IMG/VR virus record: IMGVR_UViG_3300023371_000005
Strand: one strand, 5' to 3'
From: a virus
Taxonomy: Duplodnaviria > Heunggongvirae > Uroviricota > Caudoviricetes
Length of the DNA: 64,000 bases
The notes below the pieces were generated by a model, which saw only the letters and a list, made by a program, of their open reading frames with translations, made no database searches and was not told the origin of the DNA. Each line of letters begins with the position of its first letter. Position 1 is the first letter of the stretch. The translations under genes and the position numbers were made by a program. Shown in pieces: positions 33,601 through 63,062 of the stretch.

Positions 33601-33621
33601 AGGACACTTTTTAGGTGTCCT
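33601..33621 (-). terminator. hairpin terminator
   Basis: Stem aggacact-tttt-aggtgtcct. Confidence 0.55.
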
Positions 33622-36214: not shown

Positions 36215-36217
36215 ACA

Positions 36218-37413: not shown

Positions 37414-37452
37414 TTTTTATCAATTCCTTTCTTTTCTTACCTTTGTATATAT

Positions 37453-37481
37453 ATTATATCATATTTTTTTATAAAAATCAA
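37453..37481 (-). promoter_or_regulatory. promoter TTGATT-17-TATAAT (minus)
   Basis: Motif. Confidence 0.6.
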
Positions 37482-37496
37482 AAAGAAGGTTTTTGG

Positions 37497-37566
37497 TTAG
37501 AAAATTTCTAAATCGCTTTTAGATTTGGGGTGTCGGTTGTCTCAGTGTCAGCGGCCGGAGCAGATA
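37497..37566. repeat. about 65-nt GC-rich element between terminator and promoter; related copy at 63936..64000
   Basis: Shared core aaaatttctaaatc(g/a)ctttt followed by a GC-rich tail. Confidence 0.4.
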
Positions 37567-37574
37567 AAAGAAAA

Positions 37575-37594
37575 ATGGCTCCCGAAGGAGCCAT
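37575..37594 (-). terminator. hairpin terminator
   Basis: Stem atggctcc-cgaa-ggagccat. Confidence 0.6.
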
Positions 37595-37597
37595 TTA

Positions 37598-37957
37598 TTA
37601 TCCAAAAATCTTATTGAAATAATTACCAATCATTTCCTCGGTAATGCCCATTGCATAAGGCTTTGCGACAATTTGACCGTTTTCATATATGGCACCATAA
37701 ATTGCGCCGTCCTTATAAATCTGGTAAGGGGTTAGATAACCACCATGTCCAGCAGTTTCAATATAGAGTACAACTCTGGTATTGATATCATACACGACAT
37801 AATTGCCATATTCAATTTCCTCAATTATGGCAAAACGATTATCAATAACTTCAACCTCTGCGCCATCAACAACTTGAGTGGCAGAACAAGCAGCCAAAGT
37901 GCCAATACAGAGTACGATAATCAAAATTATCAGCCAACAAATAGTATATCTTTTCAT
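37598..37957 (-). CDS. lipoprotein
   Basis: Signal peptide plus LAAC lipobox. Confidence 0.5.
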   Translation of the reverse strand: MKRYTICWLIILIIVLCIGTLAACSATQVVDGAEVEVIDNRFAIIEEIEYGNYVVYDINTRVVLYIETAGHGGYLTPYQIYKDGAIYGAIYENGQIVAKPYAMGITEEMIGNYFNKIFG

Positions 37958-38034
37958 GTTATCTCCTTATCCTGCGCAGGCGGCCATCAAAACTAGGCCG
38001 ATAAAAATCCACGGAATTATTGCCCACCATTCCA

Positions 38035-38940
38035 TTATGCCATAGCCTCCCTCAGCATTCTCGCACGAGCGGGATGCCGCAACTTGCGAATTGCCTTATT
38101 TTCGATCTGACGAATACGTTCCTTGGTAATGCCGTAGACCTTACCAACTTCTTCTAGGGTCATTGCCTTCTCGTGGTCAATGCCGAAACGCATCTTCATA
38201 ATCTCACCTTCACGAGTGGGAAGAGTATCCAGAACCGCACGGACAATCTGGCTGTTAGCTTCCTTGACAAGGTTGCCGTAGCCACTTTCAGCATTATGGT
38301 CTGCTACCAGGTCACCAACACTGGTTTCACCGTCTTCATCAACGGCCACATCCAGAGAAGATACTGCCTGAGAAATGTCCAGAATGGTCTGAACCTTTTC
38401 CAAATCTTCATTCAGATACTTGGCGATTTCTTCATCGGTCGGCTGACGATGATTTTTCAGAAGTAGTTCATTGGTTGCCTTGCGGATTTTGCCCAGAAGC
38501 TCAACCATATTTGCGGGAATGCGAATGGTGCGAGACTGGTCACCGAGCGCACGAGAAATAGACTGGCGAATCCAGTAGGTAGCATAGGTAGAGAATCTCC
38601 AACCCTTAGTACCATCATACTTCTGAGCGGCCTTTATCAGACCGAGATTGCCCTCCTGGATGAGATCAAGCAGGGGCAGACCGCAACCATAATATCTCTT
38701 TGCGATGGGAACAACCAGAAGTAGATTACAGCTTACCAGTTCATTGATTGCGTCCTGGTCGCCCTTGAGCGCCTTTACGCTCAATTCTTTCTCCTGGTCA
38801 AAATTCAAACGGGGGTGATTACCGATAGACTTCAGATAGGCTTTTACACCATCGAGGACTACCACATCGGCAACAGTAGCCTCGAAATCATTGAGAGCTT
38901 CCTGGGCCTCATCTTCCATAATAATTACATTTTCTTCCAT
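38035..38940 (-). CDS. phage-encoded sigma-70 family sigma factor (regions 1.2 to 4)
   Basis: Region 2 LIQEGNLGLIKAAQKYD...TYATYWIRQSI; region 4 EEVGKVYGITKERIRQIENKAIRKLRH. Confidence 0.85.
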   Translation of the reverse strand: MEENVIIMEDEAQEALNDFEATVADVVVLDGVKAYLKSIGNHPRLNFDQEKELSVKALKGDQDAINELVSCNLLLVVPIAKRYYGCGLPLLDLIQEGNLGLIKAAQKYDGTKGWRFSTYATYWIRQSISRALGDQSRTIRIPANMVELLGKIRKATNELLLKNHRQPTDEEIAKYLNEDLEKVQTILDISQAVSSLDVAVDEDGETSVGDLVADHNAESGYGNLVKEANSQIVRAVLDTLPTREGEIMKMRFGIDHEKAMTLEEVGKVYGITKERIRQIENKAIRKLRHPARARMLREAMA

Positions 38941-38978
38941 TATTATGCTCCTCCCTTACTTTCTCATTTTCTATATAT

Positions 38979-39007
38979 ATTATATCATATTTTTTTATAA
39001 AAATCAA
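38979..39007 (-). promoter_or_regulatory. promoter TTGATT-17-TATAAT (minus) for the sigma-factor gene
   Basis: Motif. Confidence 0.6.
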
Positions 39008-39009
39008 AT

Positions 39010-39034
39010 AAGCCCTTCCGAATGGGAAGGGCTT
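39010..39034 (-). terminator. hairpin terminator
   Basis: Stem aagcccttcc-gaat-gggaagggctt. Confidence 0.6.
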
Positions 39035-39049
39035 ATATTTTATCGGGAC

Positions 39050-39604
39050 TTAGCCTTTTGCGGAAGTGTCAATGGTGAGAAGCATCAAAGGCTTACCATC
39101 AAAAGAAATCCAGGGAGCAACTTCAACTTCAACAATAGGATTATCGCTTCGCAAAGCGAAGGAAGTCATAACTTCAATGGTAGCACCAGGACGAATCTCA
39201 GTCATAGCATGATCATACTGCTTTGCAATGTCATCATCTAAAATCAAAATTGCAGGATCTAGACCAATACCATCCTGGAAAGCACTGACGCCATAAGTAG
39301 TAGCGAACATGGTGGTCTCTTCAGTGGTGTTAGTCCAAATTAGATATACGACCAGAGCAGGATTGCCTTCATAGTCTTCAACGATATCAAAACCGGTAAT
39401 GTCAAAGTCCAGAATCGGTGCTTCGGGAGAAGGAATGAACTCATTGGTTGTTTCGAGCGGCAGAGTAGTTTCTACAACCTCAACATACTCAGTAGTAGGC
39501 GGAGCAGTCATGGTTTCAGTTACGGTGATCGTTTCATCACCGCCGCAGGCAACCAGAGAGAATACCATACACAGGGCCAGGATAAATGCGAAAATCTTTT
39601 TCAT
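39050..39604 (-). CDS. lipoprotein (paralog A)
   Basis: MKKIFAFILALCMVFSLVACGG. Confidence 0.55.
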   Translation of the reverse strand: MKKIFAFILALCMVFSLVACGGDETITVTETMTAPPTTEYVEVVETTLPLETTNEFIPSPEAPILDFDITGFDIVEDYEGNPALVVYLIWTNTTEETTMFATTYGVSAFQDGIGLDPAILILDDDIAKQYDHAMTEIRPGATIEVMTSFALRSDNPIVEVEVAPWISFDGKPLMLLTIDTSAKG

Positions 39605-39622
39605 ATCTTTTACCTCTTTTAT

Positions 39623-39895
39623 TTATTCAGTGACATCCTGGAAGCCACGCTCCCATTCAGCCATAGTTTTATCATATTCAGCGAAAATTTCTGTCTTGGT
39701 TCGCTTTAGCGCTTTACGAGCTTCCAACCAATAGCCAAGCTGAGTCCAGGCATTATAAGAATCACAGCCAAAAGCCATCGCAGCGATTACTACGGCCCAG
39801 TATTCTGCGCGCGTCCACTGGGCGACTGCACATACAGCCATCAGAATTGCGAGCAGTGCCCACAGAATTGCAAAAATCAGATTGCGAGTTTTCAT
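39623..39895 (-). CDS. two-TM membrane protein
   Basis: Hydrophobic ORF. Confidence 0.4.
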   Translation of the reverse strand: MKTRNLIFAILWALLAILMAVCAVAQWTRAEYWAVVIAAMAFGCDSYNAWTQLGYWLEARKALKRTKTEIFAEYDKTMAEWERGFQDVTE

Positions 39896-39907
39896 TTCAT
39901 TTCCTCC

Positions 39908-40294
39908 TTAGAAACATTTATCACAAGAGTCATATCCTGCGGCGATTGTTTCAGATAAAAGCATGGGGATATCTCCCCAACGGCAAGATTCAGTATGGTA
40001 TTTTTCTCCAGATTTAGTGACATATACAATAGGGTCAATTACCTCTTCCTGATCCTCAGGAGGGAAAGTCTCTTCATCGGGAATTGTCGCCTCGGGAGAG
40101 GGAACAAATCCAACTGTTTCTTCTGTCGGAGCTTCTGTTATGGGAGGTAAAGTCTCTTCTACTACAGGTTCAGTAACCGCATATGCGATAGCTTCTGTTT
40201 CAGTCGGCTCAATTTCGATCTCAGGCTCGCCGCCGCAAGCAACCAGACTGAAAATCATACATAGCGCGAGGATAAAAGCGAAAATCTTTTTCAT
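39908..40294 (-). CDS. lipoprotein (paralog B) with C-terminal KYHxxxC...CDKC motif
   Basis: Signal peptide almost identical to paralog A. Confidence 0.55.
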   Translation of the reverse strand: MKKIFAFILALCMIFSLVACGGEPEIEIEPTETEAIAYAVTEPVVEETLPPITEAPTEETVGFVPSPEATIPDEETFPPEDQEEVIDPIVYVTKSGEKYHTESCRWGDIPMLLSETIAAGYDSCDKCF

Positions 40295-40687
40295 TTACTC
40301 ATCTACTCCTTCTGGAAATGTATAGTCTTCGGGGTGAATAGGTTCACCTTCGGGAATACCTTTATGTAATGTTTCATTATAGACGAGGGAGTATTTCACA
40401 CTACCATCATCATATTCGTGAGTAATTAGGTAACAACGAATAGTGCTACCTAAATTATCTTTGTATTGTTCGTGTACGCCCCATTCGTCAATCCATCGAG
40501 TTTTACAAGGGCCATATGCTACCCATACATAACGATAACCCCAATTATCGATGGAGCAGTCATATACGATAGCATCAACCGCTTCAGCAGTTGTATTTAC
40601 TACATTTGCGGTCCGTAGTTCACAACCGCATAGAGTCAATAGTAGACAGAGCGCCAGTAGGAGAGTGATTAGTCTTTTCATAATCAC
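40295..40687 (-). CDS. lipoprotein
   Basis: Signal peptide LTLCGC. Confidence 0.5.
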   Translation of the reverse strand: MIMKRLITLLLALCLLLTLCGCELRTANVVNTTAEAVDAIVYDCSIDNWGYRYVWVAYGPCKTRWIDEWGVHEQYKDNLGSTIRCYLITHEYDDGSVKYSLVYNETLHKGIPEGEPIHPEDYTFPEGVDE

Positions 40688-41466
40688 TCACCCACATAAA
40701 TCACGTCGTCAACATACTTGCGGTCCTCGCCTTTGAGAATGGGCATTTCATAGTCAACGCCGATGTCGCGTCTCCATGCGGTGCCACGCTTCCAGCGAGT
40801 GGGGTAATTACCCCAGATAATTCCTTTATCCACTTCCAGCATGGTCTTGATGTTCTGGCAGCACATACCCTGCAGGACAGCATGAGAATAATTTGCCTGA
40901 CCGACCATCTGAATGGAGTTGCGGGTGGCGTCCAACTGGCGCCAATAGACCAAGTTACAGGCTTCTTCCTTGGGAATGTTGAAGCATCGGGAGTCAAACA
41001 TTGCACCTTTTTCAGCGGCTCGAGAATAAGTATCAATCAGCTTGATCTCTTCATCAGTAATGAAGATTGGTTCAGTGCTGTCGATGTGCTTCTGAACTTC
41101 CTCCTGGAAATATTTATTGAAAGCCATGGTTGCCATAGAAGCAGAGATGGAACACATCTTCTGAATTTCATAATCAAACCAGGCGGAGCTGGTGAGTTTC
41201 TGGTAGTCAATCAGCAGGAGAGTGATTTCATCGGACTGCTGATAAGCAAAAACACATCCTTGAATATTTTTCGCTAAATATTCCATAGTTCTTACCATAG
41301 CATTTCCTAATACCTCATCAAAAGGTTTTTGAAATCCTCTGGTAAAAGTATGAAATGCTTTTCCATCTATACGAATTGCCACAGGCATCCGTCTTACGAG
41401 GCGATGTTTAGGCACCGCCTCGTAATAAGTTTTCATTCTATTTCCGAGATCATCATGAACTGCCAT
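40684..41466 (-). CDS. Thg1-like protein (tRNA-His guanylyltransferase family 3'-5' nucleotidyltransferase)
   Basis: N-terminus VAIRIDGKAFHTFTRGFQKPFDE parallels Thg1 VVRLDGKxF..F...KPND; about 260 aa. Confidence 0.6.
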   Translation of the reverse strand: MAVHDDLGNRMKTYYEAVPKHRLVRRMPVAIRIDGKAFHTFTRGFQKPFDEVLGNAMVRTMEYLAKNIQGCVFAYQQSDEITLLLIDYQKLTSSAWFDYEIQKMCSISASMATMAFNKYFQEEVQKHIDSTEPIFITDEEIKLIDTYSRAAEKGAMFDSRCFNIPKEEACNLVYWRQLDATRNSIQMVGQANYSHAVLQGMCCQNIKTMLEVDKGIIWGNYPTRWKRGTAWRRDIGVDYEMPILKGEDRKYVDDVIYVGE

Positions 41467-41479
41467 AATTAATTCTCCT

Positions 41480-42217
41480 TTATAACATAAAACGACTATT
41501 TTCTAATAAATCATCTATTTTAAGTGTAGATAAGTGAGTATAGGGTATTCTAATTAAATTAATCCCATTATCCTTACACCATTTAGTCTTAAAATTATCT
41601 TTTTCAATGGTTTTAAGATAATTTTCTTCTGTATTCCATTCATATCCTGTAAAATAGAAGTGTTGATAACCATCAAATTCAATTACTATATTATAGGTCG
41701 GTAAATAAAAATCAAATCGTGCTTTGGCTTGTGTATCGGGAAATATACAAGTATCAAAGGTTTTTTCTTTTTCAAATTCAATATTATAATATTCTAGCAA
41801 TTCTTGGATTTGATATTCACCTTTAGAGGTACCAATACATCCACAGGAAATGGTTAAACCTCGCTTAATATTTTCTCCATCTTTAATTAAAGAACTATTC
41901 CCACAATCACAATCACAATACCAAAAAGAATGTCTATTTTTTCCTCCTGTAGGATTTGGAGCCTTGCCTGTGACTACCAATTTACCAAATCGTTGCCCCG
42001 TTAAATCTATTACTCGCTTTTGGGCAGATTCTTTTTGCAGACAACCACAACTTAAAGTATGGTTGCGACGAAGATTGTCTCCCGATACGATGGTAGATTT
42101 TCCGCATTCACATTTACATATCCACTGAACAGAACCTTGTGGAGTGCGCTCAGAATGTTCTTTTATAACGGTTAATTTTCCAAAAACCTTTCCAGTTAAA
42201 TCAATTTTTCTTCCCAT
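41480..42217 (-). mobile_element. free-standing homing-endonuclease-like gene (paralog 1): N-terminal Cys-rich zinc-finger repeats plus C-terminal DUF559/Vsr-like PD-(D/E)XK domain
   Basis: Repeats WICKCECG...SCGC twice; C-terminal FDFYLPTYNIVIEFDGYQH. Confidence 0.55.
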
Positions 42218-42318
42218 AACATTTACCTCATTTCGTCATAGTATTTTTTCTCTACTATATATAAGTTTGACGAAATAGAAATTATAATGTTTCGTCCAAA
42301 GAATTGCGGAACTCCGGT

Positions 42319-43065
42319 TCAGCGGTCGGCTGACCTGGCTGCCGCAATCTTCTTACCACCGCGCTTTGCCTTACGCTCAATGGCGCCATCAATAGCCATG
42401 CGGTGAATGGAAGTGATTTTGGAAGAAATGCCGAACTTGTTGAGGAAGGAGTTCAGATGCAGAGGCTCATAGCCGCAAGCATCGGAACAAACATTGGTAT
42501 GGTTGGCACGGAAAGCGCCAGCATGGTCATGACCGTGGAAGTTCCACAGCCAGGGAATATCAACGGGTTCGTGGGTCAGAATAATCTTCTCACCGATAAT
42601 CAGAGCGCCCTCATAGACCTCGTCAAAGAGGCAGTTATCGGCATGAGCCACCCATCTCTGGAAAGGAGCATGGAACTCCCACTGCTCAGTAACCCAGATC
42701 TTCCAACCGGGATACTTCTTAGTCATATCGACAACAACCTCGTCCTGAGTCCACTCGTCCTGATCGTAGATTTCTTCGACGATCTTACGCTCATAGTTAG
42801 TGCGGCCCACATCATGATTGCCCATGACTAGAACCTTATAACCACGGAGCTGGCGCACGCATTCAATATCGCCTACATCACCCAGGAGAATCAAAGTATC
42901 CTTTCTACCAACCTTGGAATTGATCTTGGCGATATGTTCGGCGTCAGAAGGACGCTTCTTGATGCTCTTGGCGAGATCCTTATCACCGAAGTGAGGATCG
43001 GAATACATCCAGACGGTGTTCTTACACCAATGCTGGAACTGAGGATAAATTCCGGGAATAGCCAT
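42319..43065 (-). CDS. calcineurin-like metallophosphoesterase
   Basis: DPHFGD...GDVGD...GNHD. Confidence 0.65.
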   Translation of the reverse strand: MAIPGIYPQFQHWCKNTVWMYSDPHFGDKDLAKSIKKRPSDAEHIAKINSKVGRKDTLILLGDVGDIECVRQLRGYKVLVMGNHDVGRTNYERKIVEEIYDQDEWTQDEVVVDMTKKYPGWKIWVTEQWEFHAPFQRWVAHADNCLFDEVYEGALIIGEKIILTHEPVDIPWLWNFHGHDHAGAFRANHTNVCSDACGYEPLHLNSFLNKFGISSKITSIHRMAIDGAIERKAKRGGKKIAAARSADR

Positions 43066-43083
43066 AGTATCAAACTCCTTTTC

Positions 43084-43332
43084 TTAGTAGTCTAAACAAT
43101 CAATTGCGAAATGGGCATAACCCAAAAGGAAGGGAATTACCAGTAGATACAGGAAAATGCAATCCGGAGCATTCAGCCAAACGCATAATGCCTGCGGCAG
43201 AAGGAAAATTAAAAAGGCAATTAGTACCGCCATGATGATGAAAAACGATTTTGCCATTGTATGAAAGTAAGGATGATCGTATTTCAGTTTTCTGAACATT
43301 CTACTTACTTCATAAGGATTTATTTTTTTCAT
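43084..43332 (-). CDS. membrane protein
   Basis: Hydrophobic ORF. Confidence 0.35.
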   Translation of the reverse strand: MKKINPYEVSRMFRKLKYDHPYFHTMAKSFFIIMAVLIAFLIFLLPQALCVWLNAPDCIFLYLLVIPFLLGYAHFAIDCLDY

Positions 43333-43361
43333 TTCTTTTCCCTCCCTTATCTTACATAAAT

Positions 43362-43390
43362 ATTATATCATATTTTTTTATAAAAATCAA
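43362..43390 (-). promoter_or_regulatory. promoter TTGATT-17-TATAAT (minus)
   Basis: Motif. Confidence 0.6.
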
Positions 43391-43392
43391 TA

Positions 43393-43419
43393 AAGACCCT
43401 ATGGATGCCACAGGGTCTT
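43393..43419 (-). terminator. hairpin terminator
   Basis: Stem aagaccctat-ggatgcc-acagggtctt. Confidence 0.55.
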
Positions 43420-43423
43420 TATC

Positions 43424-43699
43424 TTACCAATAAGGGTCTTCATTGATTGAAGATATTGGTTCTTCTTCGATAGTCTTTTCCATGAGCTTTTCAACAAACT
43501 CAGTCATATGACGGCATTTGTTCTCTTGATAGAACTTGCGTCCTGCTTCAGCGACCGGATACAAGACCGCAACCAATATGCCCCACAATACACCATATCC
43601 CATAAGAGATAAAAATGCAATGCAGACAGTTAGCATTGTAGCCAGGAGCACAGAAATTCCCATGGACTTAATCGTTAGCTTCTTTACTTTTAGCTTCAT
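43424..43699 (-). CDS. membrane protein
   Basis: Hydrophobic ORF. Confidence 0.35.
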   Translation of the reverse strand: MKLKVKKLTIKSMGISVLLATMLTVCIAFLSLMGYGVLWGILVAVLYPVAEAGRKFYQENKCRHMTEFVEKLMEKTIEEEPISSINEDPYW

Positions 43700-44522
43700 T
43701 TTCTAAGTCCCACCATTCCATATAAGGACTCTTGGGCAGCCACCACTCAAGACAGTAAGTTTCTTTGTCGTACCACCGATTCCAGATGTTCTCCAAGTCC
43801 TCATAGTCGTTATAGAACTGTTCTACGCAAGGCCGTTCAATCCGGTCGGCATGATAATGACCAAAGCACCAGCATTTCCAAGTGAAGTTATCCTTCAACT
43901 TATCCATCCAGACTTCCATGGTCTTATCGACCATAGACTGGTCAATGCCGCCGATAAACAAGTCCCGAGGCTCCCAAGAGATAGGACAAGTGTGAGAGAA
44001 TACAAAGTCAAACTCTTTTCCGGTAGTATTGTTCATAATCGCCCGCATTTCAGCTTCAGTAAGCTGTTCATCGGGGAACCAGCCAGGATGTTCCTTTGTA
44101 CCTTCAACCCGCTTCAACCGATACCACTTGTCAACAGAATAAGCACCGCCAACAACCAAGCACTTATGATTGTTGAGAGTGTAGACATTACCATCAACAA
44201 AATACCGAATATTGGGGAAGTCTTTATCTACATAGACTGCGCCATCCACATTGGGATCATATTCTACTTTATAACCCAAGTTTTCAGGCCGCTCTTCATG
44301 ATTACCCCGAACGCAGTAGAAGGTATAGCCATATACGCAGGACAGTTTCTTATATTTTTTATCAGTTTTATTTAACCAAAAATTTAGACCACTATCGCCT
44401 AAAATAATGATTGCAGTTTCAGTGGGAGTAAAATTGGGCATATTCCGATTTATATTACCTGCCCGATTGACTACTCCCATGCCACCGTGACAGTCTCCTG
44501 TAATTATAAAATTTTTTATCAT
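43668..44522 (-). CDS. calcineurin-like metallophosphoesterase
   Basis: GDCHGG...GDSG...GNHEE. Confidence 0.65.
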   Translation of the reverse strand: MIKNFIITGDCHGGMGVVNRAGNINRNMPNFTPTETAIIILGDSGLNFWLNKTDKKYKKLSCVYGYTFYCVRGNHEERPENLGYKVEYDPNVDGAVYVDKDFPNIRYFVDGNVYTLNNHKCLVVGGAYSVDKWYRLKRVEGTKEHPGWFPDEQLTEAEMRAIMNNTTGKEFDFVFSHTCPISWEPRDLFIGGIDQSMVDKTMEVWMDKLKDNFTWKCWCFGHYHADRIERPCVEQFYNDYEDLENIWNRWYDKETYCLEWWLPKSPYMEWWDLENEAKSKEAND

Positions 44523-44526
44523 ATAT

Positions 44527-45250
44527 TACACTCCTAAATCTTGTAAAGTTAAAGTATCTCGTTTTTCATAAGGAATACGAATAAGTTTAATATTATGATT
44601 TTTACAGTATTCATTTTTTAACTTATCACGATACTATCTTTCTTCTAAAGTTTCGGAATTGTCCCATGGAGTATAATCGTTACTATGTTGACGTCCATCA
44701 AATTCTATTAAATGAGACAAGACATTATTACTATCAAAAATAGCAAAATCAAATCGTAGTCTTTTTTTATTTCTTAAATCTGAGAAGCTATATTCTTTAG
44801 CATAGTTAATATTATTTTCTCTTAATAATAATTCAATATTTTCTTCGCCAATAGAACGATTAGCACATCCACAACTTGTTGTATGTAATCTTGTTAGATT
44901 TGAGCCGAATATAGATACTATATTACCGCATTCACATTCACAAATCCACTTACTTTTCCATCCATTTTCTTCTGTGCTAATATAATTATTATCTGGACCT
45001 TTAACGGTAAGTTTTCCATAAACATTTCCCGTTAAATCATTTCTTTGAGCATGACATTTTCCACAACTCATATTTTGTCCAGATTTTATTCCACTATTTA
45101 GATTGCAGCTATTAACACTAGTCAAATTACCGCAAGAACAGCGACAAATCCAATAAATATTATGACCTTTTCCCCGAGGTTTTGTTTCATCTATATATAA
45201 TGGTTGTAGCTATCCTATTGTTTCAATAGAAAAATCTCTTGGTTTTCTTC
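44527..45250 (-). mobile_element. free-standing homing-endonuclease-like gene (paralog 2) with two in-frame TAGs (about 45212 and 44634-44636); TTG start
   Basis: Past TAG 44634 the frame continues into KLIRIPY, matching LIRIPY at the paralog-1 C-terminus. Upstream of TAG 45212 is another WICRCSCGN repeat and an MGRKPRD start, paralleling MGRKIDL in paralog 1. Confidence 0.55.
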
Positions 45251-45336
45251 CCAAATAATCAACTCCTTCTATAATAATTGAAAAAAGTCGGGGTTCAATT
45301 ATTATTCTTTGTCCATATTTTCATTTCTTTATATAT

Positions 45337-45365
45337 ATTATAACATATTTTTTTATAAAAATCAA
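45337..45365 (-). promoter_or_regulatory. promoter TTGATT-17-TATAAT (minus)
   Basis: Motif. Confidence 0.6.
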
Positions 45366-45368
45366 AAA

Positions 45369-45389
45369 AGGGAGCCTTGATGGCTCCCT
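45369..45389 (-). terminator. hairpin terminator
   Basis: Stem agggagcc-ttgat-ggctccct. Confidence 0.6.
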
Positions 45390-45679
45390 TAAATGTATCG
45401 TGGAGGAATAGGATCATCTGATCGCATTTCCTTTAGTTTCTGTGCGCTCGTGGGTTCTTGTTTTGCTCCTTTTGGCATAAAGAACGCATCAAAAATATCC
45501 GCATAGGTAGTTTTTTCTAATGCTTCTCGTGCGGCACGCGCTTCTCGTTTATCTTGGACATAGCAGGCAAGTGCCTGTTTGATAAGGCACTCGCCAGCTT
45601 CATCAGTTAGTTCACATTCATTACCCTTACAGACTGGCACATAACCATGCTGACTGCAACATAGGGGACAATAACTCAT
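45389..45679 (-). CDS. Cys-rich hypothetical protein
   Basis: ORF. Confidence 0.3.
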   Translation of the reverse strand: MSYCPLCCSQHGYVPVCKGNECELTDEAGECLIKQALACYVQDKREARAAREALEKTTYADIFDAFFMPKGAKQEPTSAQKLKEMRSDDPIPPRYI

Positions 45680-55431: not shown

Positions 55432-56313
55432 TTACCCTTTGATGCATTGACTTAATAAAGTTAGACGAACTTGATTTTGATATTCAGGTTTGACTAAATA
55501 ATAAATATAACTTTCCATAACTTGCGCGATTGGCATAGTGCGGCCTTCAATCTTAAAATGAGAAAAGCCCATGTCAGTATATTTACCATATAAATCATCA
55601 ACCTTAATAACAGAAGGGAATTCTAAAATATCATAGAAGCCTCTGCGGTAAGTGGGGCAACCGCCCGCAAGCTCTCCATCAGTTTCTGGATTCATCATTT
55701 CAAAATTAAGTTGATGCTTGGCAATAGTTTCATAATGCTTTTGTCGTAATTTACAATTAGGATGACAATAAGCATTTATAAGTAATTCAATTTTATCTTT
55801 ATGTTTAATGCCATCTAGGAAATCAAAATTATAGTTATCTCTATAATCAATAACTACTAAATCATATTGTTCAGTAGCTTCATTGATTTTACCTAAATCT
55901 CTTTCACATCTTGTTGTAGATAAAATATATTTGAAATCTGGATAATTTTTTCTTAGATACTCTTCTAATATGGGAGAGTTGATAATTACTTCATTCATTC
56001 CATTATTAGCTAATTCCATTGTTAGATTACAATAAGTATCATACAAATGCTTTTCTTCTAAGAGAGGATTAGTATAAGTATATCGTAAAGGAATATCAGC
56101 ATCATTGAGTAAAGCAATTGTTTCTTTCATGCGAGTAGAAGAAGTCGAACCACACAGTAAGCGACCTCCATTCCAAATTGCTCCTGGAAAAGTTCCATAG
56201 ATACCACCAAATTCAATTCCTTCGTGGAAATACTCTGGATGAAAATGATGTAACTGTAACAAAGATAAATTTAAGTGCAATAAAGTATCGAAATCAGGCA
56301 AATAAAATTTCAT
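55432..56313 (-). CDS. hypothetical protein
   Basis: 293-aa ORF with its own promoter. Confidence 0.4.
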   Translation of the reverse strand: MKFYLPDFDTLLHLNLSLLQLHHFHPEYFHEGIEFGGIYGTFPGAIWNGGRLLCGSTSSTRMKETIALLNDADIPLRYTYTNPLLEEKHLYDTYCNLTMELANNGMNEVIINSPILEEYLRKNYPDFKYILSTTRCERDLGKINEATEQYDLVVIDYRDNYNFDFLDGIKHKDKIELLINAYCHPNCKLRQKHYETIAKHQLNFEMMNPETDGELAGGCPTYRRGFYDILEFPSVIKVDDLYGKYTDMGFSHFKIEGRTMPIAQVMESYIYYLVKPEYQNQVRLTLLSQCIKG

Positions 56314-56349
56314 TATTTAAGCTCCTTTGTCATTATTCTTTTTATTACA

Positions 56350-56378
56350 ATTATATCATTTTTTTTCAGTAAAATCAA
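56350..56378 (-). promoter_or_regulatory. promoter TTGATT-17-TATAAT (minus)
   Basis: Motif. Confidence 0.6.
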
Positions 56379-56403
56379 CTCATGAAGGAGAGTAAATAAA
56401 AAA

Positions 56404-56451
56404 ATCTCCTTTCTCACTTATTTATTTTCTAAATAATATGAGAAAGGAGAT
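56404..56451 (-). terminator. terminator with 13-bp inverted repeat
   Basis: atctcctttctca ... tgagaaaggagat followed by a T-run on the minus strand. Confidence 0.5.
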
Positions 56452-56462
56452 AAATCAATTAA

Positions 56463-56648
56463 TCAATATTCACCAGTGTGATCAATACCACACAATTTAT
56501 CGACGCTCTCAGTTAAAGCATCAATCATTTCTCTTAACCAGTAGTCATTGTCATCTGACCACTTTCTTAAATATAGAAGCTCCTTTTCAAGAATTTCTAT
56601 TCTCTTCTATTGTTCTTTAATAATTTCATATAATTCTTCAATGGTCAT
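56463..56648 (-). CDS. small coiled-coil protein (61 aa) with one in-frame TAG
   Basis: SD AAAGGAGG before ATG 56648; the frame is open across the TAG to TGA at 56463. Confidence 0.45.
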
Positions 56649-56675
56649 AAACAATGACCTCCTTTATATGTTATT

Positions 56676-56704
56676 AGGGTAGAACCTAAATAAGACTCTA
56701 CCCT
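56676..56704. other. stable hairpin flanking the DGR TR2 module
   Basis: Stem agggtaga-acctaaataagact-ctaccct; a corresponding hairpin sits at 59715..59749 in the TR1 module. Confidence 0.5.
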
Positions 56705-56716
56705 TATTTTTATTTT

Positions 56717-56865
56717 TGATTACGAGAGCGTTCATTATAAAATAAATTACTAACACCCAATCATCGGAAGAATTTTGCCAAGAGGCAAGGTTTATATACT
56801 TGATAAAATACTGCAAATATATAAAACTCTCAAAGAGAGTTATAAATAAAGTCAATAACAAAACA
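56717..56865 (-). ncRNA. conserved about 150-nt element immediately 3' (minus-strand sense) of TR2; paralog of 59757..59900; candidate DGR spacer/priming RNA
   Basis: About 85 percent identical to the TR1-flanking element, including the hairpin aactctcaaagagagtt. Confidence 0.5.
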
Positions 56866-56867
56866 GT

Positions 56868-56994
56868 GGCCACCGATATTCGCATTCGCATTCGACGTGG
56901 AATTGTTCAAATTCAGATAGAAAGGACCAGTATTCAGCCTGTTATTCCAATTACTACTGAAGTTCGTGACGTGAGACGAATTGCAATTCGTATC
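56868..56994 (-). repeat. DGR template repeat TR2 (cognate of VR2)
   Basis: 127-nt near-copy of 57079..57204; differences fall at positions where this copy has A on the coding (minus) strand; lies outside any real gene. Confidence 0.8.
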
Positions 56995-57061
56995 GTGGAA
57001 TAAATATTTTATCGTATAAGTAACCCATATATTCAAAGAATTTTACTATTCTTTAAATTTT

Positions 57062-58255
57062 TTATAATTTTTGGATGCGGCCACCGACATTCGCACTCGC
57101 ACTCGACGCGGAATCGTTCAAACGCAGAAAGAAAGGACCAGAAGCCAGCCCGTTAGCCCAATAACCACCGAAGCGCGCGACGCGAGACGAATTGCAACCC
57201 GCATAATCAGAGAAGTAAGTTGTACCACTACCTCCTTTAGCCGTTATAACAAATCCGCCTTCACTAGTACCTAAACAATTGGTATAATATCCATAAGTAT
57301 TACTAGTGAGTCCAGAAGCATTGGTAAATTCATAATTAGTGCCAGAATCATCAAAAGCTCCAGTAGTAGTTAAATAATTTCTAGAAGCATCAGTAACAAT
57401 GCCATCACACCATTTAGAAATATTACCCCAAAAATTTTCAATTCCCGCAAATTTCATACCTTCAGTATCCGTTCCACCATAATCCAATCCTTGATTATTC
57501 ATTGTTCCAGTAATAATAGGAGCAGAATTAGAACTATTAGTATAACCATATCCGAGAGCAGTTTGTCCATTCAAAGATTTATATTTTATAACATACATGG
57601 CCTATAAATAAACTAATTGATAGTAAGCAAACTACTCATAACCATCGCCATTTAGTTGGGCTGCCGCACGAAACTCACTAATAGTTTTAGAAGCCGTAGG
57701 GGTTTTATTACTTAAACTACGTAATTTACCATCACTATCAATATAGCCATCATAAGCACCAGTATAAAATGTATCTAAATCTTTATTATGCGTATGTGCG
57801 TAATAAGTAAAATCTGTATTAGCAATATCATTTGTAAAACTAACAGTAACTTTATTATCGTCGCTTTTAGTAATTCTTAATCCTCTTCTTGGAAAAGCAA
57901 TCATTACATCTCCTGCACTTCCACTTTCAATATCTACTGGATTACCATTAATATCTTCAGCGTAATTATTAGGATTTAATTTTACAACTTCTACTCCATC
58001 TTTCATAAGAACGGGATAATGTCCGAAAAATTCATCCCAAGCAGAAGATTTTGCTTCCATGGTAAATGCGTCATCCTCATAAGAACAACAAGTGTCAGGA
58101 TTAGAATCATTTAAATCAATAATAACAGTCATTACTTTTACCGGCTCTTCATCTAGTTTTGTTCCAATTTCAATTAACGCATCTTCAATATGCTCCACAT
58201 GAGAAGCACACCACTTATCAACAAAATCATGTAAATTCATTCTTTCATAAGGCAT
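57062..58255 (-). CDS. DGR target protein 2 (FGE-sulfatase/C-type-lectin-fold, variable C-terminus), 398 codons with two in-frame TAGs (57632-57634, 57602-57604)
   Basis: Track ORFs 57632..58255 and 57062..57598 share one frame; the segment GDGYE-TAG-FAYYQLVYL-TAG-AMYVIKYK aligns to GDTYE-Q-FAWFQLIYL-Q-AMFIMKYK of paralog 60070..61296 (CAA at both positions); GN(I)W and RFGG(Y)W motifs. Confidence 0.8.
57079..57204 (-). repeat. DGR variable repeat VR2 at the 3' end of target 2
   Basis: See TR2. Confidence 0.8.
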
Positions 58256-58383
58256 AAATTCACATCCTATTCTTACTTATTTAATATTTTATCAATTTCC
58301 TCTTGTAAATTTGGAAATCTCAAAATTACTGCATCATAATCTAATTTTCCTTCTTTAATTCTCATAGCTAAGTATTCAGCCAT
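58256..58383 (-). CDS. small ORF (about 36 aa) between RT region and target 2
   Basis: ATG overlaps the upstream stop; weak. Confidence 0.2.
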
Positions 58384-58387
58384 AAAA

Positions 58388-58618
58388 TTACACCCCCATA
58401 ATAATAGCATCTAAAGCATTTTTCATAATCTCATTTTCATCAGACATTTTCTTTAGATACTCGTCTTTGCTATATTGAATCTCTTCATATTCATAATAAA
58501 CATGACCTTTTTCATCAACTTTTTCGATAATATTATTATGAATATAAACAGTAGTTTTTCCAATCACTAAAGGTTTTGCCTGCTCGGCACTACCTCGCAC
58601 GATACCCATATTTTTCAT
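58388..58618 (-). CDS. hypothetical protein (76 aa) overlapping the RT 3' end
   Basis: Good SD AGGAGA before the ATG; not Avd-like (acidic). Confidence 0.4.
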   Translation of the reverse strand: MKNMGIVRGSAEQAKPLVIGKTTVYIHNNIIEKVDEKGHVYYEYEEIQYSKDEYLKKMSDENEIMKNALDAIIMGV

Positions 58619-59681
58619 ATCTTTGTATCTCCTTTCCTTGAATAACGCATTTTTTATATATCTCCATAGAACGATAAAATGTTCTAAAATATTTATTAAT
58701 AAAATTAGACATTGTTGTCTAATCTATTATCCCTTTATAAGAGAAAAAAGCACAAAATTCGTGATAAGTTGGTAAAAATATTTCATCTCGATAATAAGAA
58801 TTATATAACATTTTTATTATAAATTTTCTCACCTTTTTATAAGTTCGTTTACGCAAAATAATTCTATTATGAAAATGTCTATATCCTACAAAATCTATTC
58901 CCCTAATATCTACAGGAAAAATCTAATAATTATCTTTTATTTCTAATTTTAATTCTTCTTGAAGATATTTTTTTATTTGATAAAAATATTTCCATAACTA
59001 TTTTTTATTATTTCCTAAAATTACTATATCATCCATATAACGAATAATATATTTAATTTTCAATTCTTCTTTACACCAATGATCAAAAAATGATAAATAA
59101 TAATTTGATAAATATTGTGATAGATAAGAACCAATAGGTAAACCATTATTACAACTTTCAATAATTTTATCTAAAAGCAATAAAGTCTATTTATCTTTAA
59201 TTTTTTTACGAATTAGTTTTTGTAAAATAGTTTGATTAATATTTGGATAAAATTTTTTTATATCAATTTTCAAGCAATACTAAGTATTTTTAACATCTTT
59301 TAGATATTTTTTAGTAAGATTAGTTGCTCGTGTAATTCCGGCATTTTTTATAGAAGCACAACTATGATAACAAAAATGTTTTACTAAAGTTGGTTCTAAC
59401 TATAACATAATGGCCCATTGAATAATTCTATCTGGATAATAAGGAAGTTTCATAATTTCTCGCTCTTTTCCACTATCCTAAATTATTGAATGCTTATAGA
59501 GTGAAACCTAATATTCATTATTTAATAATATTTGTTGAATCTATTTTAGATTATTATCTAAATCTTTTTCAACTTTTTTTACTGAACGATAATGAGATTT
59601 ATCCTATTTAGCCATTTTGTGTGCTAACCGCAAATTATCCATATTACATATTTTATCAAAAATATTATTTAGACGTTTCAT
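58536..59681 (-). CDS. DGR reverse transcriptase, 381 aa, with 11 in-frame TAG codons
   Basis: RT motifs across one open frame: DRIIQWA (motif 2), IDIKKFYPNI (3), DGR-specific GLPIGSYLSQYLSNYYL with SQ rather than QG (4), YIRYMDDIVIL (5), IFPVDIRGIDFVGYRH (7); only TAG interrupts it, no TAA or TGA until 58536; very AT-rich. Confidence 0.8.
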
Positions 59682-59714
59682 ATTAATTCCTTCTATAATT
59701 ATTGTTATTTTTAT

Positions 59715-59749
59715 AAGGTTTTAGTAAAAAATATTTTTACTAAAACCTT
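59715..59749. other. perfect 16-bp hairpin between TR1 module and RT start
   Basis: aaggttttagtaaaaa-tat-tttttactaaaacctt. Confidence 0.55.
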
Positions 59750-59756
59750 ATTTTAT

Positions 59757-59900
59757 TTTGACTGAGAGAACGTTCATTATAATAAAATAATTACTAATAC
59801 CCATTATCAGAAGAATTTTACCAAGAGGTAAGGTTTATGTATTTAGAAAAATATTATATATAAAACTCTCAAAGAGAGTTATAAATAAAATAACAAAAGA
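59757..59900 (-). ncRNA. conserved about 150-nt element 3' of TR1 (paralog of 56717..56865)
   Basis: See 56717..56865. Confidence 0.5.
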
Positions 59901-59906
59901 GTGCGT

Positions 59907-60036
59907 GCCGATATTCGAATCCGTATTGTCGGGTGTTTCATTCACATTGAAGATGAAAGGTCCAGTATTCAGACTATTATTCCAATAACCGCTGAAATTC
60001 GCTACGTTACTGGGATTGACATTCGAATTATCGGAA
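59907..60036 (-). repeat. DGR template repeat TR1 (cognate of VR1)
   Basis: 130-nt alignment to 60091..60220 with about 31 mismatches, all at positions where TR1 has A on the coding strand. Confidence 0.85.
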
Positions 60037-60069
60037 GTATATTTTTCCATACAATTAACCTATATTATT

Positions 60070-61296
60070 TTATAGTTTTTGGACGCGCGCGCCGATATTC
60101 GAAGCCGCATCGTCGGGCGTACCATCCACACCGAAGAGGAAAGGCCCAGCAACCAGACCATCATCCCAACAACCGCCGAAACGCGCCACGCGACCGGGAT
60201 AGACATCCGAAGCATCGGAAAAATAAGTTGTCTCGCTACCAGCACCGATCATTTTCTTTAACGCAAAACCGCCTTCAGAAGTGGCACAAGGATAAATTAA
60301 ATAATCCTCTAAATAACCATTTTCGGCAACTTGTTCTGTATCAACTTCCGCAGTAATTTCGTATCCTTCACCATAGTCGTTGAAATTATTAGTTGTAATT
60401 TTATAATTGCAATTATCATCAGAGACAATGCCATCAACCCAATTCCAAATATTACCCCAGAAATTTTCAATACCAGCAAATTTCATACCTTGAGTCATAT
60501 CTGTGTTATCTCCGTCATAGGGAATACCCCAGTCCAAACTGCAAGTATTCATAATGCCAGAAGCTATTGCTTCCTCTCCATTTACATTACCACATCCAAG
60601 AGAAGATTGGCCATTAATTGATTTATACTTCATAATAAACATAGCTTGTAAATAAATTAATTGAAACCAAGCAAATTGTTCATAAGTATCTCCATTGTTG
60701 TGTGCGGCCGCACGTGCTTCACCGATTGTTATATTACAAGCAGGAGTTTTACCACTCAAACTACGTAATTTATTATTTTCATCAATATACCCATTATAAG
60801 CACCGATATAAAATGTATCTAATGAATTATTATTAAAAGTATGAGCGTAATATTCAAAATTATCAGGATCTTCAATATTGGTAAAACTAATTCTTATTTT
60901 CATATCAATCTCATTTCCTGTAATTCTTAATCCTCTTCTTGGAAAAGCAATCATTACATCTCCTGCACTTCCACTTTCAATATCTACTGGATTACCATTA
61001 ATATCTTCAGCGTAATTATTAGGATTTAATTTTACAACTTCTACTCCATCTTTCATAAGAACGGGATAATGTCCGAAAAATTCATCCCAAGCACTTGCGC
61101 CCGCAGACATTTCGCTAGCATCATCCTCATAAGAGCAACAAGTTAATGGATCTGAATTAGATAAATCAATAACAACAGTCATAGTCTTACCAAATGCTTT
61201 ATTATATAATCTTACTAATTCATCTTCAATATGTTCTACATGAGAAGCACACCACTTATCTACTCCATCTTGAAGATTCATTCGTTCATAACTCAT
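60070..61296 (-). CDS. DGR target protein 1 (FGE-sulfatase/C-type-lectin-fold), 408 aa, no internal TAG
   Basis: FWGNIWNWVDG and RVARFGGCW motifs; VR at codons about 360-405; GC-rich IMH-like gacgcgcgcgcc at the 3' end. Confidence 0.8.
   Translation of the reverse strand: MSYERMNLQDGVDKWCASHVEHIEDELVRLYNKAFGKTMTVVIDLSNSDPLTCCSYEDDASEMSAGASAWDEFFGHYPVLMKDGVEVVKLNPNNYAEDINGNPVDIESGSAGDVMIAFPRRGLRITGNEIDMKIRISFTNIEDPDNFEYYAHTFNNNSLDTFYIGAYNGYIDENNKLRSLSGKTPACNITIGEARAAAHNNGDTYEQFAWFQLIYLQAMFIMKYKSINGQSSLGCGNVNGEEAIASGIMNTCSLDWGIPYDGDNTDMTQGMKFAGIENFWGNIWNWVDGIVSDDNCNYKITTNNFNDYGEGYEITAEVDTEQVAENGYLEDYLIYPCATSEGGFALKKMIGAGSETTYFSDASDVYPGRVARFGGCWDDGLVAGPFLFGVDGTPDDAASNIGARVQKL
60091..60220 (-). 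repeat. DGR variable repeat VR1
   Basis: See TR1. Confidence 0.85.
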
Positions 61297-61302
61297 TTAT
61301 TT

Positions 61303-61731
61303 TCACTCTCCTAAAATAAAATCACCAAGTAAACCTTCTCCAAGTAAAGAAGTTCCTCCAGTCAAAGCAACTGTAATTATCTAGCCATTTTGAATTGAAA
61401 GAGAATAAGGCTAATTTGTTATTGAATCAATAATAATTAATGACTTTGCGGAACGAGTAGTTACCATTCCATTTTCATCAATAATAACATATTCATTGGG
61501 ATTACCAATAATTTGATTCTATTTTTGATTCCAAGAATCTCTTTCTCCAACTTGTAAATGCACTTCCTAATTATTAATATGATTATTTACATATTCAATA
61601 TCAGCTTTAGTGTCATCAATAGCATTGATAATATTTACTAAGGTATCATTATTCGGATAGTCCTACATATTAATTTTAGACCATAAATAAATAAGACCAT
61701 CAAAGTCTAAAAATGATTTTGTTTTAGACAT
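61303..61731 (-). CDS. hypothetical structural-module protein, 142 aa, five in-frame TAGs
   Basis: SD AAGGAGGAAG before ATG 61731; frame open to TGA 61303 apart from 5 TAG. Confidence 0.5.
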
Positions 61732-61784
61732 AGAACTTCCTCCTTATATATTTTAACATAAAAATTTTATAAAGTCAATAAAAA

Positions 61785-61817
61785 AAGGGAGAGGGACAGT
61801 TATTTTATCCCTCTCCC
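61785..61817 (-). terminator. hairpin terminator
   Basis: Stem agggagaggga-cagttatttta-tccctctccct; a TTGACT-17-TAAAAT promoter lies just downstream on the minus strand. Confidence 0.55.
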
Positions 61818-61832
61818 TTAAATTATTTTAAA

Positions 61833-63062
61833 TTAAGCGTTAGCAATAGCAGCTTCAATTTCAGCAGTAGTTAAAGCAATTACTCTAGTATTAATTTCAT
61901 TATCAGTATATGCCTTAGCATCAATTAATGCTTGTGCGGCAGCACCGTATGCATCATAAGTATTGGCGGGAATAGTATCCTGCTTCTTTGCTAATTCCTC
62001 ATCAACATAAGTCTTATCGGCCTTTTTAGCAATTTCAGTAGCATTAGCGCTAACAGCATTCTGACGAGCAGTAACTTCAGCCTCTAAATCAGCCTGAGAA
62101 GCCTTTGAAGCGATAGCGTTAGACAATTCAGTCTTATCAGCAGTCTTTAGATAATCGCCTTCAACAACAGCCAAACGACTATCAACGCCATTAATAGCAT
62201 CAGACAATTCAGTCTTATCAGCAGCTTTTAGATAGTCATCTTCAACAGCCTTAACACGACTAGCCAAAGCAGTTAAATCAGCAGCCTTAGCATAATCACC
62301 AATAGACAAAGCAGTAATAGCGTCAGCAACATAAGCGCTAACAGTCTTATCACCAGTATCAACCTTACTCTGCAAAGCTGCAATAGCTTCATTCATTGCA
62401 GAAGCATCATCTGGATGATCCTGAATCCAAGCAGCGATTTCAGCTAGAGTATCTAGAGACTCCTTAGCGTCCTCTGTGATTAACTGCTTAGCCAATTCTT
62501 CGTTAGCAATGGCACGAACAGACTTACCAGCGTCATCGCCCTCTAGAGTAGCAACACGACCAACTAAAGCAGTGTCATCATAAGTAGCAGCAGCCTGAGC
62601 GTCAGCGATCATCTGTACAACAGTCTTACCATCAGCAACTTCACCGACCAAAGATTCTAGTGCGTCAACTTCACCCTGTGCAGTGACAGCCTTGTCATCA
62701 GCAGCCTTTGCGGCAGCAGCATTAGCTTCTTCTGCAGCCTTAGCACGAAGAATTTCAGTATCTAAAGCAGCTTTAACAGAAGCAGCAGACTCAGAAGAAC
62801 CACCATTAGCAGCATTTAGAGTTTCTTCTGCTTTCTTGTTAATATAAGCAACAATAGACTGTTGATCAGTATAACCTTCTGGAATTTCACCAACATAAGA
62901 ACGAAGATCTTCAATTTCTAATCCACGAGCAGTAGCCTCGCTTGCAATAGCTTCCGCAATTGCCTCATCTCGAGCAGTAGCTTCAGCAGCAATTTTTTCA
63001 GCGATCTTGGACCATAAAGTACTTACGCCCTATTGGTCTAAAAATTTCTTTAAATCAGCCAT
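61833..63062 (-). CDS. Ala/Glu/Lys-rich coiled-coil structural protein (possible fiber or decoration protein), 409 aa, one in-frame TAG at 63030-63032
   Basis: SD AAAGGAGAT before ATG 63062; same frame as track ORF 61833..62651; repeats (GD)YLK(A/T)ADKTELS. Confidence 0.55.

Follow-up and report, generated by a model that had tools for sequence, protein, structure and literature searches.

How a diversity-generating retroelement (DGR) with one detectable reverse transcriptase (RT) can maintain two template repeats (TRs) is the question raised by a 64,000-nt stretch of Caudoviricetes phage DNA (IMG/VR virus record IMGVR_UViG_3300023371_000005; "the window" throughout), in which each TR is followed on its 3′ side by a copy of the same non-coding element and only the first copy lies ahead of the RT gene. 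The original prediction for this locus proposed that TR and element form a self-contained TR-spacer module that the RT may use in trans. The analysis described here upholds that proposal, as the TR2 repeat differs from its target only at adenines, a single RT is found in the window, and three helices carry compensatory changes between the two copies. The reading in which the elements act as spacers within complete DGR RNAs, with one RT serving two modules and module 2 being served in trans since it has no RT of its own, is given a probability of about 0.85.

Two template repeats and one reverse transcriptase

All coordinates are read in minus-strand sense, and the genes between 56.6 and 61.3 kb all lie on the minus strand. 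In this direction, target gene 1 with its variable repeat (VR1) is followed by TR1, element 1, a hairpin, the RT gene and two small open reading frames (ORFs), after which come target gene 2 with VR2, TR2, element 2, a second hairpin and an ORF of 61 aa:

61296..60070, minus strand: target gene 1, with VR1 at its 3′ end
60085..60220, minus strand: VR1, compared with TR1
59901..60036, minus strand: TR1 (template repeat 1), compared with VR1
59900..59757, minus strand: element 1
58536..59681, minus strand: DGR reverse transcriptase, 381 aa, with 11 in-frame TAG codons read as Gln
58255..57062, minus strand: target gene 2, with VR2 at its 3′ end
57077..57201, minus strand: VR2, compared with TR2
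56866..56990, minus strand: TR2 (template repeat 2), compared with VR2
56865..56717, minus strand: element 2

Both TR/VR pairs have the signature of a DGR, namely differences confined to the adenines of the TR and a VR at the 3′ end of a target gene. In TR1/VR1 none of the 93 non-A positions is mismatched and 31 of the 43 A sites are changed, and in TR2/VR2 the corresponding counts are 0 of 89 and 24 of 36; when the pairs are crossed, non-A mismatches abound and the A-only pattern is lost. As judged from their sequences, both pairs look active, and no further VR was found in the window. TR1 and TR2 are 74.6% identical to one another, and with an identity of only about 75% each VR needs its own TR. 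The A-specific mutagenesis extends to the third base from the end of the TR/VR homology, so that cDNA synthesis must start at or past the TR end.

Two further features of the target genes were observed. Within both VRs (60143..60159 and 57135..57151, minus strand) is a terminator-like 7-bp hairpin that runs into T-rich sequence (GGTCTGGTTGCTGGGCC TTTCC...); it is found in the VR copies only, the TR having A's at the stem positions. The target-gene paralogs also share a 174-nt block that is 100% identical (60920..61093 and 57870..58043, minus strand) in genes that are otherwise 60-80% identical, which suggests recent gene conversion in the N-terminal, perhaps virion-docking, part.

The RT has a Pfam RVT_1 domain (E 2.5e-19), is 31% identical to the RT (bRT) of Bordetella phage BPP-1 over 286 aa (E 2e-29) and carries the sequence IGSYLSQ, the GxxxSQ motif of DGR RTs, which together place it in the DGR clade; it is the one RT detectable in the window. 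Its gene is readable only with TAG as a sense codon (TAG codons at 59606, 59543, 59510, 59480, 59402, 59282, 59189, 59000, 58925, 58721 and 58592). In target gene 2, TAG codons at 57634 and 57604 stand where the paralogous target gene 1, which has no TAG, has Gln codons. These sequences indicate a TAG=Gln recoding that appears to be concentrated in the RT, and the in-frame TAGs could act as a gate on RT expression; a tRNA scan of the 64 kb found no tRNA, and hence no suppressor tRNA.

Helices conserved between the two modules

The two elements are identical at 122 of 140 aligned bases, or 87.1% (81.9% counting indels), close to the 85% or so first reported for them. Conservation between the copies falls from 87% in the element to 75% in the TR and 64.6% in the stretch reaching to the next ATG. 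Element 1 ends 65 nt before the ATG of the RT gene, with a hairpin in the intervening stretch, while element 2 lies ~1.7 kb downstream of the RT stop codon and is followed by a ribosome-binding site and the 61-aa ORF, not by an RT. The elements differ by indels of 4, 4, 1, 2 and 2-3 nt and keep no reading frame. That the elements are a duplicated fragment of a protein-coding gene, an explanation named in the original prediction as one that would overturn it, finds some encouragement in two overlapping mechanical ORFs (56664..56891, 75 aa, and 59835..60050, 71 aa); these ORFs cover non-equivalent parts of the two copies, however, the indels of 4, 4, 1 and 2 nt break any common frame, and the substitutions track base-pairing rather than codon structure, leaving this explanation with almost no probability.

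The functional unit is larger than the elements as first delimited, since it adds a strand 5′ of each TR and an A-rich tail that reaches up to the terminal hairpin. Its parts, in 5′ to 3′ order within each module, are as follows:

60039..60053, minus strand: module 1 up-strand, TGTAT GGAAAAATAT, just 5′ of TR1, pairing with the stop-strand (RNAduplex and minimum-free-energy fold)
59892..59898, minus strand: module 1 P0 5′ strand, UUUUGUU, 2 nt past the last TR/VR-homologous base, pairing with 59757..59751
59857..59887, minus strand: module 1 P1, 12 bp with two U-U mismatches and a UUU loop, at the position of the BPP-1 Avd-binding stem-loop
59838..59854, minus strand: module 1 stop-strand, ATATTTTTCT AA ATACA, ending 6 nt before P2
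59816..59831, minus strand: module 1 P2, UUACC-UCUU-GGUAA, then AA (the A-run)
59766..59802, minus strand: module 1 P3, GGG-U-AU / GU-U-CUC closing a UAGUAA...GAAC loop of sarcin-ricin type
59751..59757, minus strand: module 1 P0 3′ strand, AAUAAAA, candidate primer strand
59715..59749, minus strand: module 1 terminal hairpin, perfect 16-bp stem (18 bp with flanking A-U), -17.7 kcal/mol, 0 of 300 shuffles as stable
57003..57018, minus strand: module 2 up-strand, TATAC GATAAAATATT, 5′ of TR2
56852..56863, minus strand: module 2 P0 5′ strand, UUUUGUU A UUGA
56818..56848, minus strand: module 2 P1, from folding
56795..56812, minus strand: module 2 stop-strand, AGTATTTTATC AA GTATA
56773..56788, minus strand: module 2 P2, UUGCC-UCUU-GGCAA, then AA
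56724..56758, minus strand: module 2 P3, with a UAGUAA...GAAC loop
56708..56719, minus strand: module 2 P0 3′ strand, UCAA A AAUAAAA
56676..56704, minus strand: module 2 terminal hairpin, 12-bp stem, -15.3 kcal/mol, 1 of 300 shuffles as stable

The internal hairpin described at the outset as aactctc-aaa-gagagtt is present in both copies as the core of P1 (AACTCTC-TTT-GAGAGTT at 59880..59864 and 56841..56825, the AAA loop being that of the plus strand), where the full stem has 12 bp, two U-U mismatches and -7.7 kcal/mol, a stability reached by 0-1 of 300 shuffles. The P1 region is 100% identical in the two modules. P2 and P3 are separated by a single-stranded linker of 13-15 nt, after which comes P3 with its UAGUAA/GAAC loop, and in each of these two hairpins a pair that is A-U in module 1 is G-C in module 2, giving two compensatory changes.

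A longer-range duplex, here called up:stop, is formed by the 10-20 nt directly 5′ of P2 and the sequence just 5′ of the TR. Its strands align without gaps between the modules on both sides and differ by four double (compensatory) changes and two wobble-compatible single changes, with no disruptive change, and the cognate duplexes (-13.8 and -11.3 kcal/mol) are more stable than the crossed ones (-7.4 and -7.9). Taken over up:stop, P2 and P3, six base pairs are thus altered on both sides between the copies with pairing kept, and none is disrupted. In a second long-range helix, P0, the 7-12 nt that follow the TR pair with the tail directly 3′ of P3; in both window modules UUUUGUU pairs with AAUAAAA in the same register, from 2 nt after the last TR base, and the helix crosses the up:stop duplex as a pseudoknot. 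An alternative 11-bp register of P0 in module 1 (59893..59883 with 59758..59748) was rejected as the main model, because it would encroach on P1 and the terminal hairpin and would not match the register of module 2. The support for up:stop and P0 in the window comes from covariation between the copies and across the family, not from folding energies.

These changes bear directly on the possibility that the second copy is a neutral remnant of a recent tandem duplication of the target-TR cassette, with a functionless flank and with TR2/VR2 as a fossil. The entire cassette of target gene, TR and flank has been duplicated, the 174-nt identical block indicates gene conversion, and P1, being identical in the two modules, offers no covariation signal. 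A neutral copy is nonetheless very unlikely, because the six two-sided changes all preserve pairing, the element (87%) is more conserved than the TR (75%) or the sequence beyond (65%), the absence of any mismatch at the 89 non-A positions of TR2/VR2 argues for current or very recent activity, and the same pattern has been found independently in a second phage (L052, described below).

The stable stem-loop that had been noted after each element, with its perfect 16-bp stem in module 1, stands up to the shuffling controls listed above. The terminal hairpins start 1-3 nt past the P0 tail and are alike in their first few bases only. They have no counterpart in the relatives, where the RT start codon directly follows the tail, and they lie outside the conserved family. 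In a test for rho-independent terminators, no U-tract was found on the sense strand, where AUAAAAAUAA and AAUAACAUAU come after the stems; the module 1 hairpin is terminator-like on the plus strand only, and for module 2 a plus-strand U-run 3′ of the hairpin was read from the sequence. The terminal hairpins could delimit or stabilise the 3′ end of the RNA, insulate it from downstream translation, or block antisense transcription.

A family of spacer RNAs beside reverse transcriptase genes

An exact DNA pattern of the P2 region had no match in IMG/VR, and a search by RT in IMG/VR and JGI metagenomes yielded no close relative, the best reaching 52-56% aa identity. An nhmmer profile of the two elements gave weak matches in nine RT-homologous loci, in each case a short way upstream of the RT gene. 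A common core emerged when the spacers between TR and RT were inspected in 80 loci, consisting of CCUUGCC-UCUU-GGCAAAA, a linker and a stem that closes a UAGUA...GAA loop. R1, a covariance model made from this core, found 53 matches in 80 viral RT loci, all on the RT strand and 52 of them directly 5′ of the RT. Across 39 distinct sequences, the ten modelled pairs of P2 and P3 are 90.9% paired with 60 double-change cells, a level that none of 500 shuffles reached, and controls in which the pairing was slid were 33-51% paired.

When a second covariance model (R2), built from the TR-RT spacers of other phages only, was run against the 64-kb window, it returned two matches, 56704..56800 (53.5 bits, E 2.3e-9) and 59746..59843 (46 bits, E 9.8e-8), the next-best match scoring 12.7 bits. 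In 80 further metagenome loci R2 found 72 matches, one per locus and nearly all directly 5′ of the RT, with one (L098) ~690 nt upstream. Conservation in related DGR phages, on which the original prediction had made itself depend, is therefore found, as are the matches of a model from other phages, the sub-threshold Rfam similarities and the BPP-1-like order of elements that together speak for a DGR spacer RNA.

The Rfam families concerned are RT-17 (RF03020), which scores 35.1 bits on element 2 (56704..56792, E 3e-4) and 26.9 bits on element 1 (59748..59835, E 0.035) with a gathering score of 40.4, and RT-18 (RF03021), for which the elements have scores of 33.3 and 29.7 bits and the gathering score is 41.3; at curated thresholds, Rfam has no match in the window. 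Among 12 tested relatives of the window's RT locus, eight pass the RT-17 threshold, and the loci from which R2 was built themselves pass RT-17. The window elements also have the RT-17 consensus features, that is, a P2 hairpin with a CUUG-type loop and A-run, a stem closing a UAGUA/GAA loop, and an A-rich tail. By sequence and structure model, the elements are best described as divergent members of the RT-17/RT-18-type class of DGR spacer RNAs, sharing with it the same consensus (CCuuGCC-UCUU-GGCAAAA, linker, UAGUA...GAA stem, A-rich tail) and, in the case of element 1, the location beside an RT gene. They differ from the published motif in that it was given no function beyond the statement that it 'may act in retrons or DGRs' (PMC5737381), in that the long-range up:stop and P0 helices are not part of it, and in that the window copies, lying under the gathering scores, are missed by annotation at curated thresholds.

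The RT-1 to RT-19 motifs adjoin RT genes; RT-10 lies between the TR and brt of BPP-1, and others were speculated to belong to DGRs (Weinberg et al., 2017, PMC5737381). Many of these motifs were also speculated to belong to retrons (Weinberg et al., 2017, PMC5737381), so that the elements might be a retron-type msr/msd or another RT-associated RNA unrelated to DGR templating. This is extremely unlikely, as the RT shares 31% identity with bRT and carries the GxxxSQ motif of DGR RTs, each element immediately adjoins the 3′ end of a TR whose VR partner is perfectly A-only, and in every relative inspected the motif lies between TR-like A-rich repeats and the RT.

The covariation originally called for as a check in related phages is present in P2, P3, up:stop and P0 alike. 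In nearly every relative an up:stop duplex of unrelated sequence is found, always abutting P2 (GGTTGTCTCC/GGGACAACG, GGACTATGGAT/ATCCATAGTT and GTTGCGGAGATC/GATCTCTGCAA), and P0 pairs are likewise found (TGTTTTTCA/TGAAAAACA, TGCTTAC/GTAAGCA, TGCTTGTA/TACAAGCA, CCATGTCA/TGACATGG and GAAATTACA/TGTAATTTC). Over 35 non-redundant modules, cognate partners beat non-cognate ones for both up:stop and P0, and none of 5000 permutations was as good.

Among about 160 RT-anchored loci, examined with up to 6-7 kb of flank, a second spacer copy was found only in L052 (the 98-kb IMG/VR contig IMGVR_UViG_3300000286_000005, second module at L052:100-351), so that the double-module layout is seen in 2 of about 160 loci. 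As in the window, in this orphan module a target gene with a 3′-terminal VR is followed by a TR and an RT-17-type spacer, whose 43.9 bits exceed the gathering score. No RT adjoins the module, the RT-linked one being ~5.6 kb away, and 15 of its 16 TR/VR mismatches are at A. Both long-range helices are compensatory between the two L052 modules, up:stop as CTTCTC/GAGAAG versus TCTCTCC/GGAGAGA and P0 as GAAATTACA/TGTAATTTC versus ATAAATTA/TAATTTAT. Unlike in the window, the L052 orphan lies upstream of the RT instead of downstream and has no terminal hairpin, and its RT is 48% identical to that of the window.

The orphan copies also bear on a cis-regulatory explanation, in which the element is a leader or attenuator of the downstream gene, acting on RT translation or transcription with the hairpins as terminators, and is not a substrate of the RT. 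In the relatives the tail of the motif stops about 0-30 nt from the start codon of the RT, where P0 could occlude RT initiation, and P1 and the module 1 terminal hairpin score as terminator-like. Copy 2 and the second copy of L052, however, precede unrelated small ORFs and keep every helix; in the window ~70 nt with a hairpin separate the tail from the RT start; the U-run of the terminal hairpins is antisense, with none on the sense strand; and the up:stop duplex encloses the TR, an arrangement that suits a template RNA but not a leader. P0 in particular is kept in module 2 and in the L052 orphan module, neither of which precedes an RT, and is thus not merely an occluder of the RT start. A purely regulatory leader is accordingly a distinctly unlikely account, and a dual role, both regulatory and as template, is possible.

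Comparison with BPP-1 and a proposed priming geometry

In BPP-1, the 5′ part of the spacer consists of an Avd-binding stem-loop, a primer strand ending in A56 and an avd:Sp 'cPRT Stop' strand (bioRxiv 10.1101/2023.10.23.563531; PMC6182149), and its 3′ part of a 2-bp UNCG hairpin, A80/A81 with their A-minor contacts, a single-stranded Thumb Ring and a bRT-binding stem-loop. The BPP-1 spacer (RF03022, Phage_DGR, formerly RT-10) resembles those of the window in lying directly 3′ of the TR and 5′ of the RT gene with a length of about 140-190 nt, and in having a hairpin right after the TR, P1 standing in the window at the position of the Avd-binding hairpin with no Avd gene found. Further likenesses are a duplex of TR-5′ sequence with the spacer, followed by a short tetraloop hairpin and adenosines (cPRT Stop), and a single-stranded linker followed by a stem-loop with a sarcin-ricin-like internal loop. 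From the stop duplex on, the modules of the window are collinear with BPP-1, with P2 and AAAA directly after the duplex. By this comparison, up:stop, P2 and the adenosines would correspond to the 'cPRT Stop', the linker to the 'Thumb Ring', and P3 to the RT-binding stem-loop. A 2026 JAR3D survey reported a sarcin-ricin internal loop in RT-10, RT-14, RT-16, RT-17, RT-18 and RT-19, and confirmed it in the BPP-1 structures, with AUUA in place of AGUA. The proposed homology to the BPP-1 spacer thus draws on architecture and a common sarcin-ricin loop, not on sequence.

The window system also differs from BPP-1 in several respects. There is no primer strand 5′ of the stop-strand, the 3′ flank of the TR pairing instead with the tail 3′ of P3 (P0); TR/VR homology and A-mutagenesis reach within 3 nt of the TR end; and the window has extra terminal hairpins and two RNA modules to one RT. 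In four relatives (L038, L050, L013 and L066) the sequence 5′ of the stop-strand was inspected for a primer strand like that of BPP-1; no consistent complementarity was seen there, and such a strand was dropped in favour of P0.

Several findings weigh against reading the elements as spacers of complete DGR RNAs. The window elements have no sequence or covariance-model similarity to BPP-1: RF03022, which scores 104.7 bits on BPP-1 itself, gave no match in the window region at E values up to 10, and neither R1 nor R2 matches the BPP-1 spacer. The gap between P1 and the stop-strand is 1-5 nt, which leaves no room for a BPP-1-type primer strand, and both elements score below the RT-17 and RT-18 gathering scores. 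P3 of module 1 is thermodynamically weak (-2.4 kcal/mol), and the long-range helices of the window are AU-rich, so that their energies alone are not significant (11% and 34% of shuffles were as good). The RT count applies to the 64-kb window, and a second RT outside it is possible. Finally, BPP-1 requires Avd, and the small ORFs beside the cassette had no Pfam match, nor did a tblastn of BPP-1 Avd against the window, a search of low sensitivity, yield a match. Avd is present in most DGRs, not in all.

On the favoured reading, a complete DGR RNA would run from the up-strand through the TR, the P0 5′ strand, P1 and the stop-strand, which pairs back to the up-strand, and on through P2 (a 5-bp tetraloop hairpin) with its A-run, the linker, P3, the A-rich P0 3′ strand and the terminal hairpin. 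The module RNAs are presumed to be made and bound by the RT. The single RT (59681..58536) would bind either RNA through the conserved elements, prime on the RNA itself beside the 3′ end of the TR and copy the TR with adenine-specific errors, after which the cDNA would replace the cognate VR (TR1 to VR1, TR2 to VR2), and in this way two tail-fibre-like target genes would be mutated. For BPP-1, action of the RT in trans on DGR RNA is established in vitro (Handa et al., 2018, PMC6182149). Because P0 begins where cDNA synthesis must start, it is the proposed template:primer duplex, with a putative priming A at about 59751 and 56708. A broader and rather doubtful extension of this scheme is that RT-17-type DGRs lacking Avd would use self-priming that is circularly permuted with respect to BPP-1, in which the A-rich tail 3′ of P3 acts as primer through P0 (in a pseudoknot with up:stop) and cDNA starts 1-2 nt beyond the last TR base from a priming A near 59751 and 56708, while the terminal hairpins insulate the modules and one amber-gated RT serves the two template RNAs in trans.

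DGRs in which one RT accompanies several TR-VR pairs have been described in the zeta crAss-like phages of the gut, which resemble the window in this respect and in having in-frame amber codons in their RT genes. They differ in that Avd is present and no spacer RNA analysis was reported, and in that two of the three pairs have non-A substitutions and were judged possibly inactive, whereas in the window both pairs differ at adenines alone and a full spacer accompanies each TR. Multi-TR DGRs and the function of the spacer RNA are already published, and the window is a rare, not unique, double-module layout of a known system.

Genomic surroundings and significance

Several observations concern the setting of the cassette. 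A strong canonical intrinsic terminator (61785..61819, minus strand; a 14-bp stem with seven GC pairs, then TTTTTATT) closely precedes target gene 1 and suggests that the DGR cassette begins a new transcription unit; in a sigma-70 promoter scan, AT-rich matches were too numerous to place the promoter of the module RNAs. GC content is 25-34% in the DGR region (56000..62000), lowest in the RT gene, and 40-48% in much of the rest (e.g. 18000..50000), which is compatible with horizontal acquisition of the cassette. Downstream of module 2, an ORF at 55432..56313 (minus strand) has a borderline similarity to Peptidase_U32 (22.3 bits, cutoff 22.4). An ORF of 833 aa at 48569..51070 (minus strand) matches in the phage database solely the huge phages LR756500, LR756501 and LR756503 (462-735 kb) at 39% aa identity, and the closest DNA matches of the RT gene are crAss-like phages. 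The window may come from a large recoded phage with a DGR related to those of Crassvirales.

For the biology of DGRs, the locus amounts to a natural experiment on the cis-priming model, in that a second template distant from the RT has kept its own up-strand and full spacer, with helices maintained through compensatory changes. The double module matches what the model predicts if spacer and TR must share one RNA while the RT comes in trans. The RT-17/RT-18 motifs, which had been without a known function, are linked here to parts of the solved BPP-1 ribonucleoprotein, and two long-range helices are added to them. Curated thresholds miss AT-rich members in recoded phages. Of practical relevance is that searches for RT-17-type spacers could reveal orphan TRs missed by RT-anchored DGR finders, and the compact Avd-less module of up-strand, TR and spacer is a candidate design for multiplexed DGR-based mutagenesis tools.

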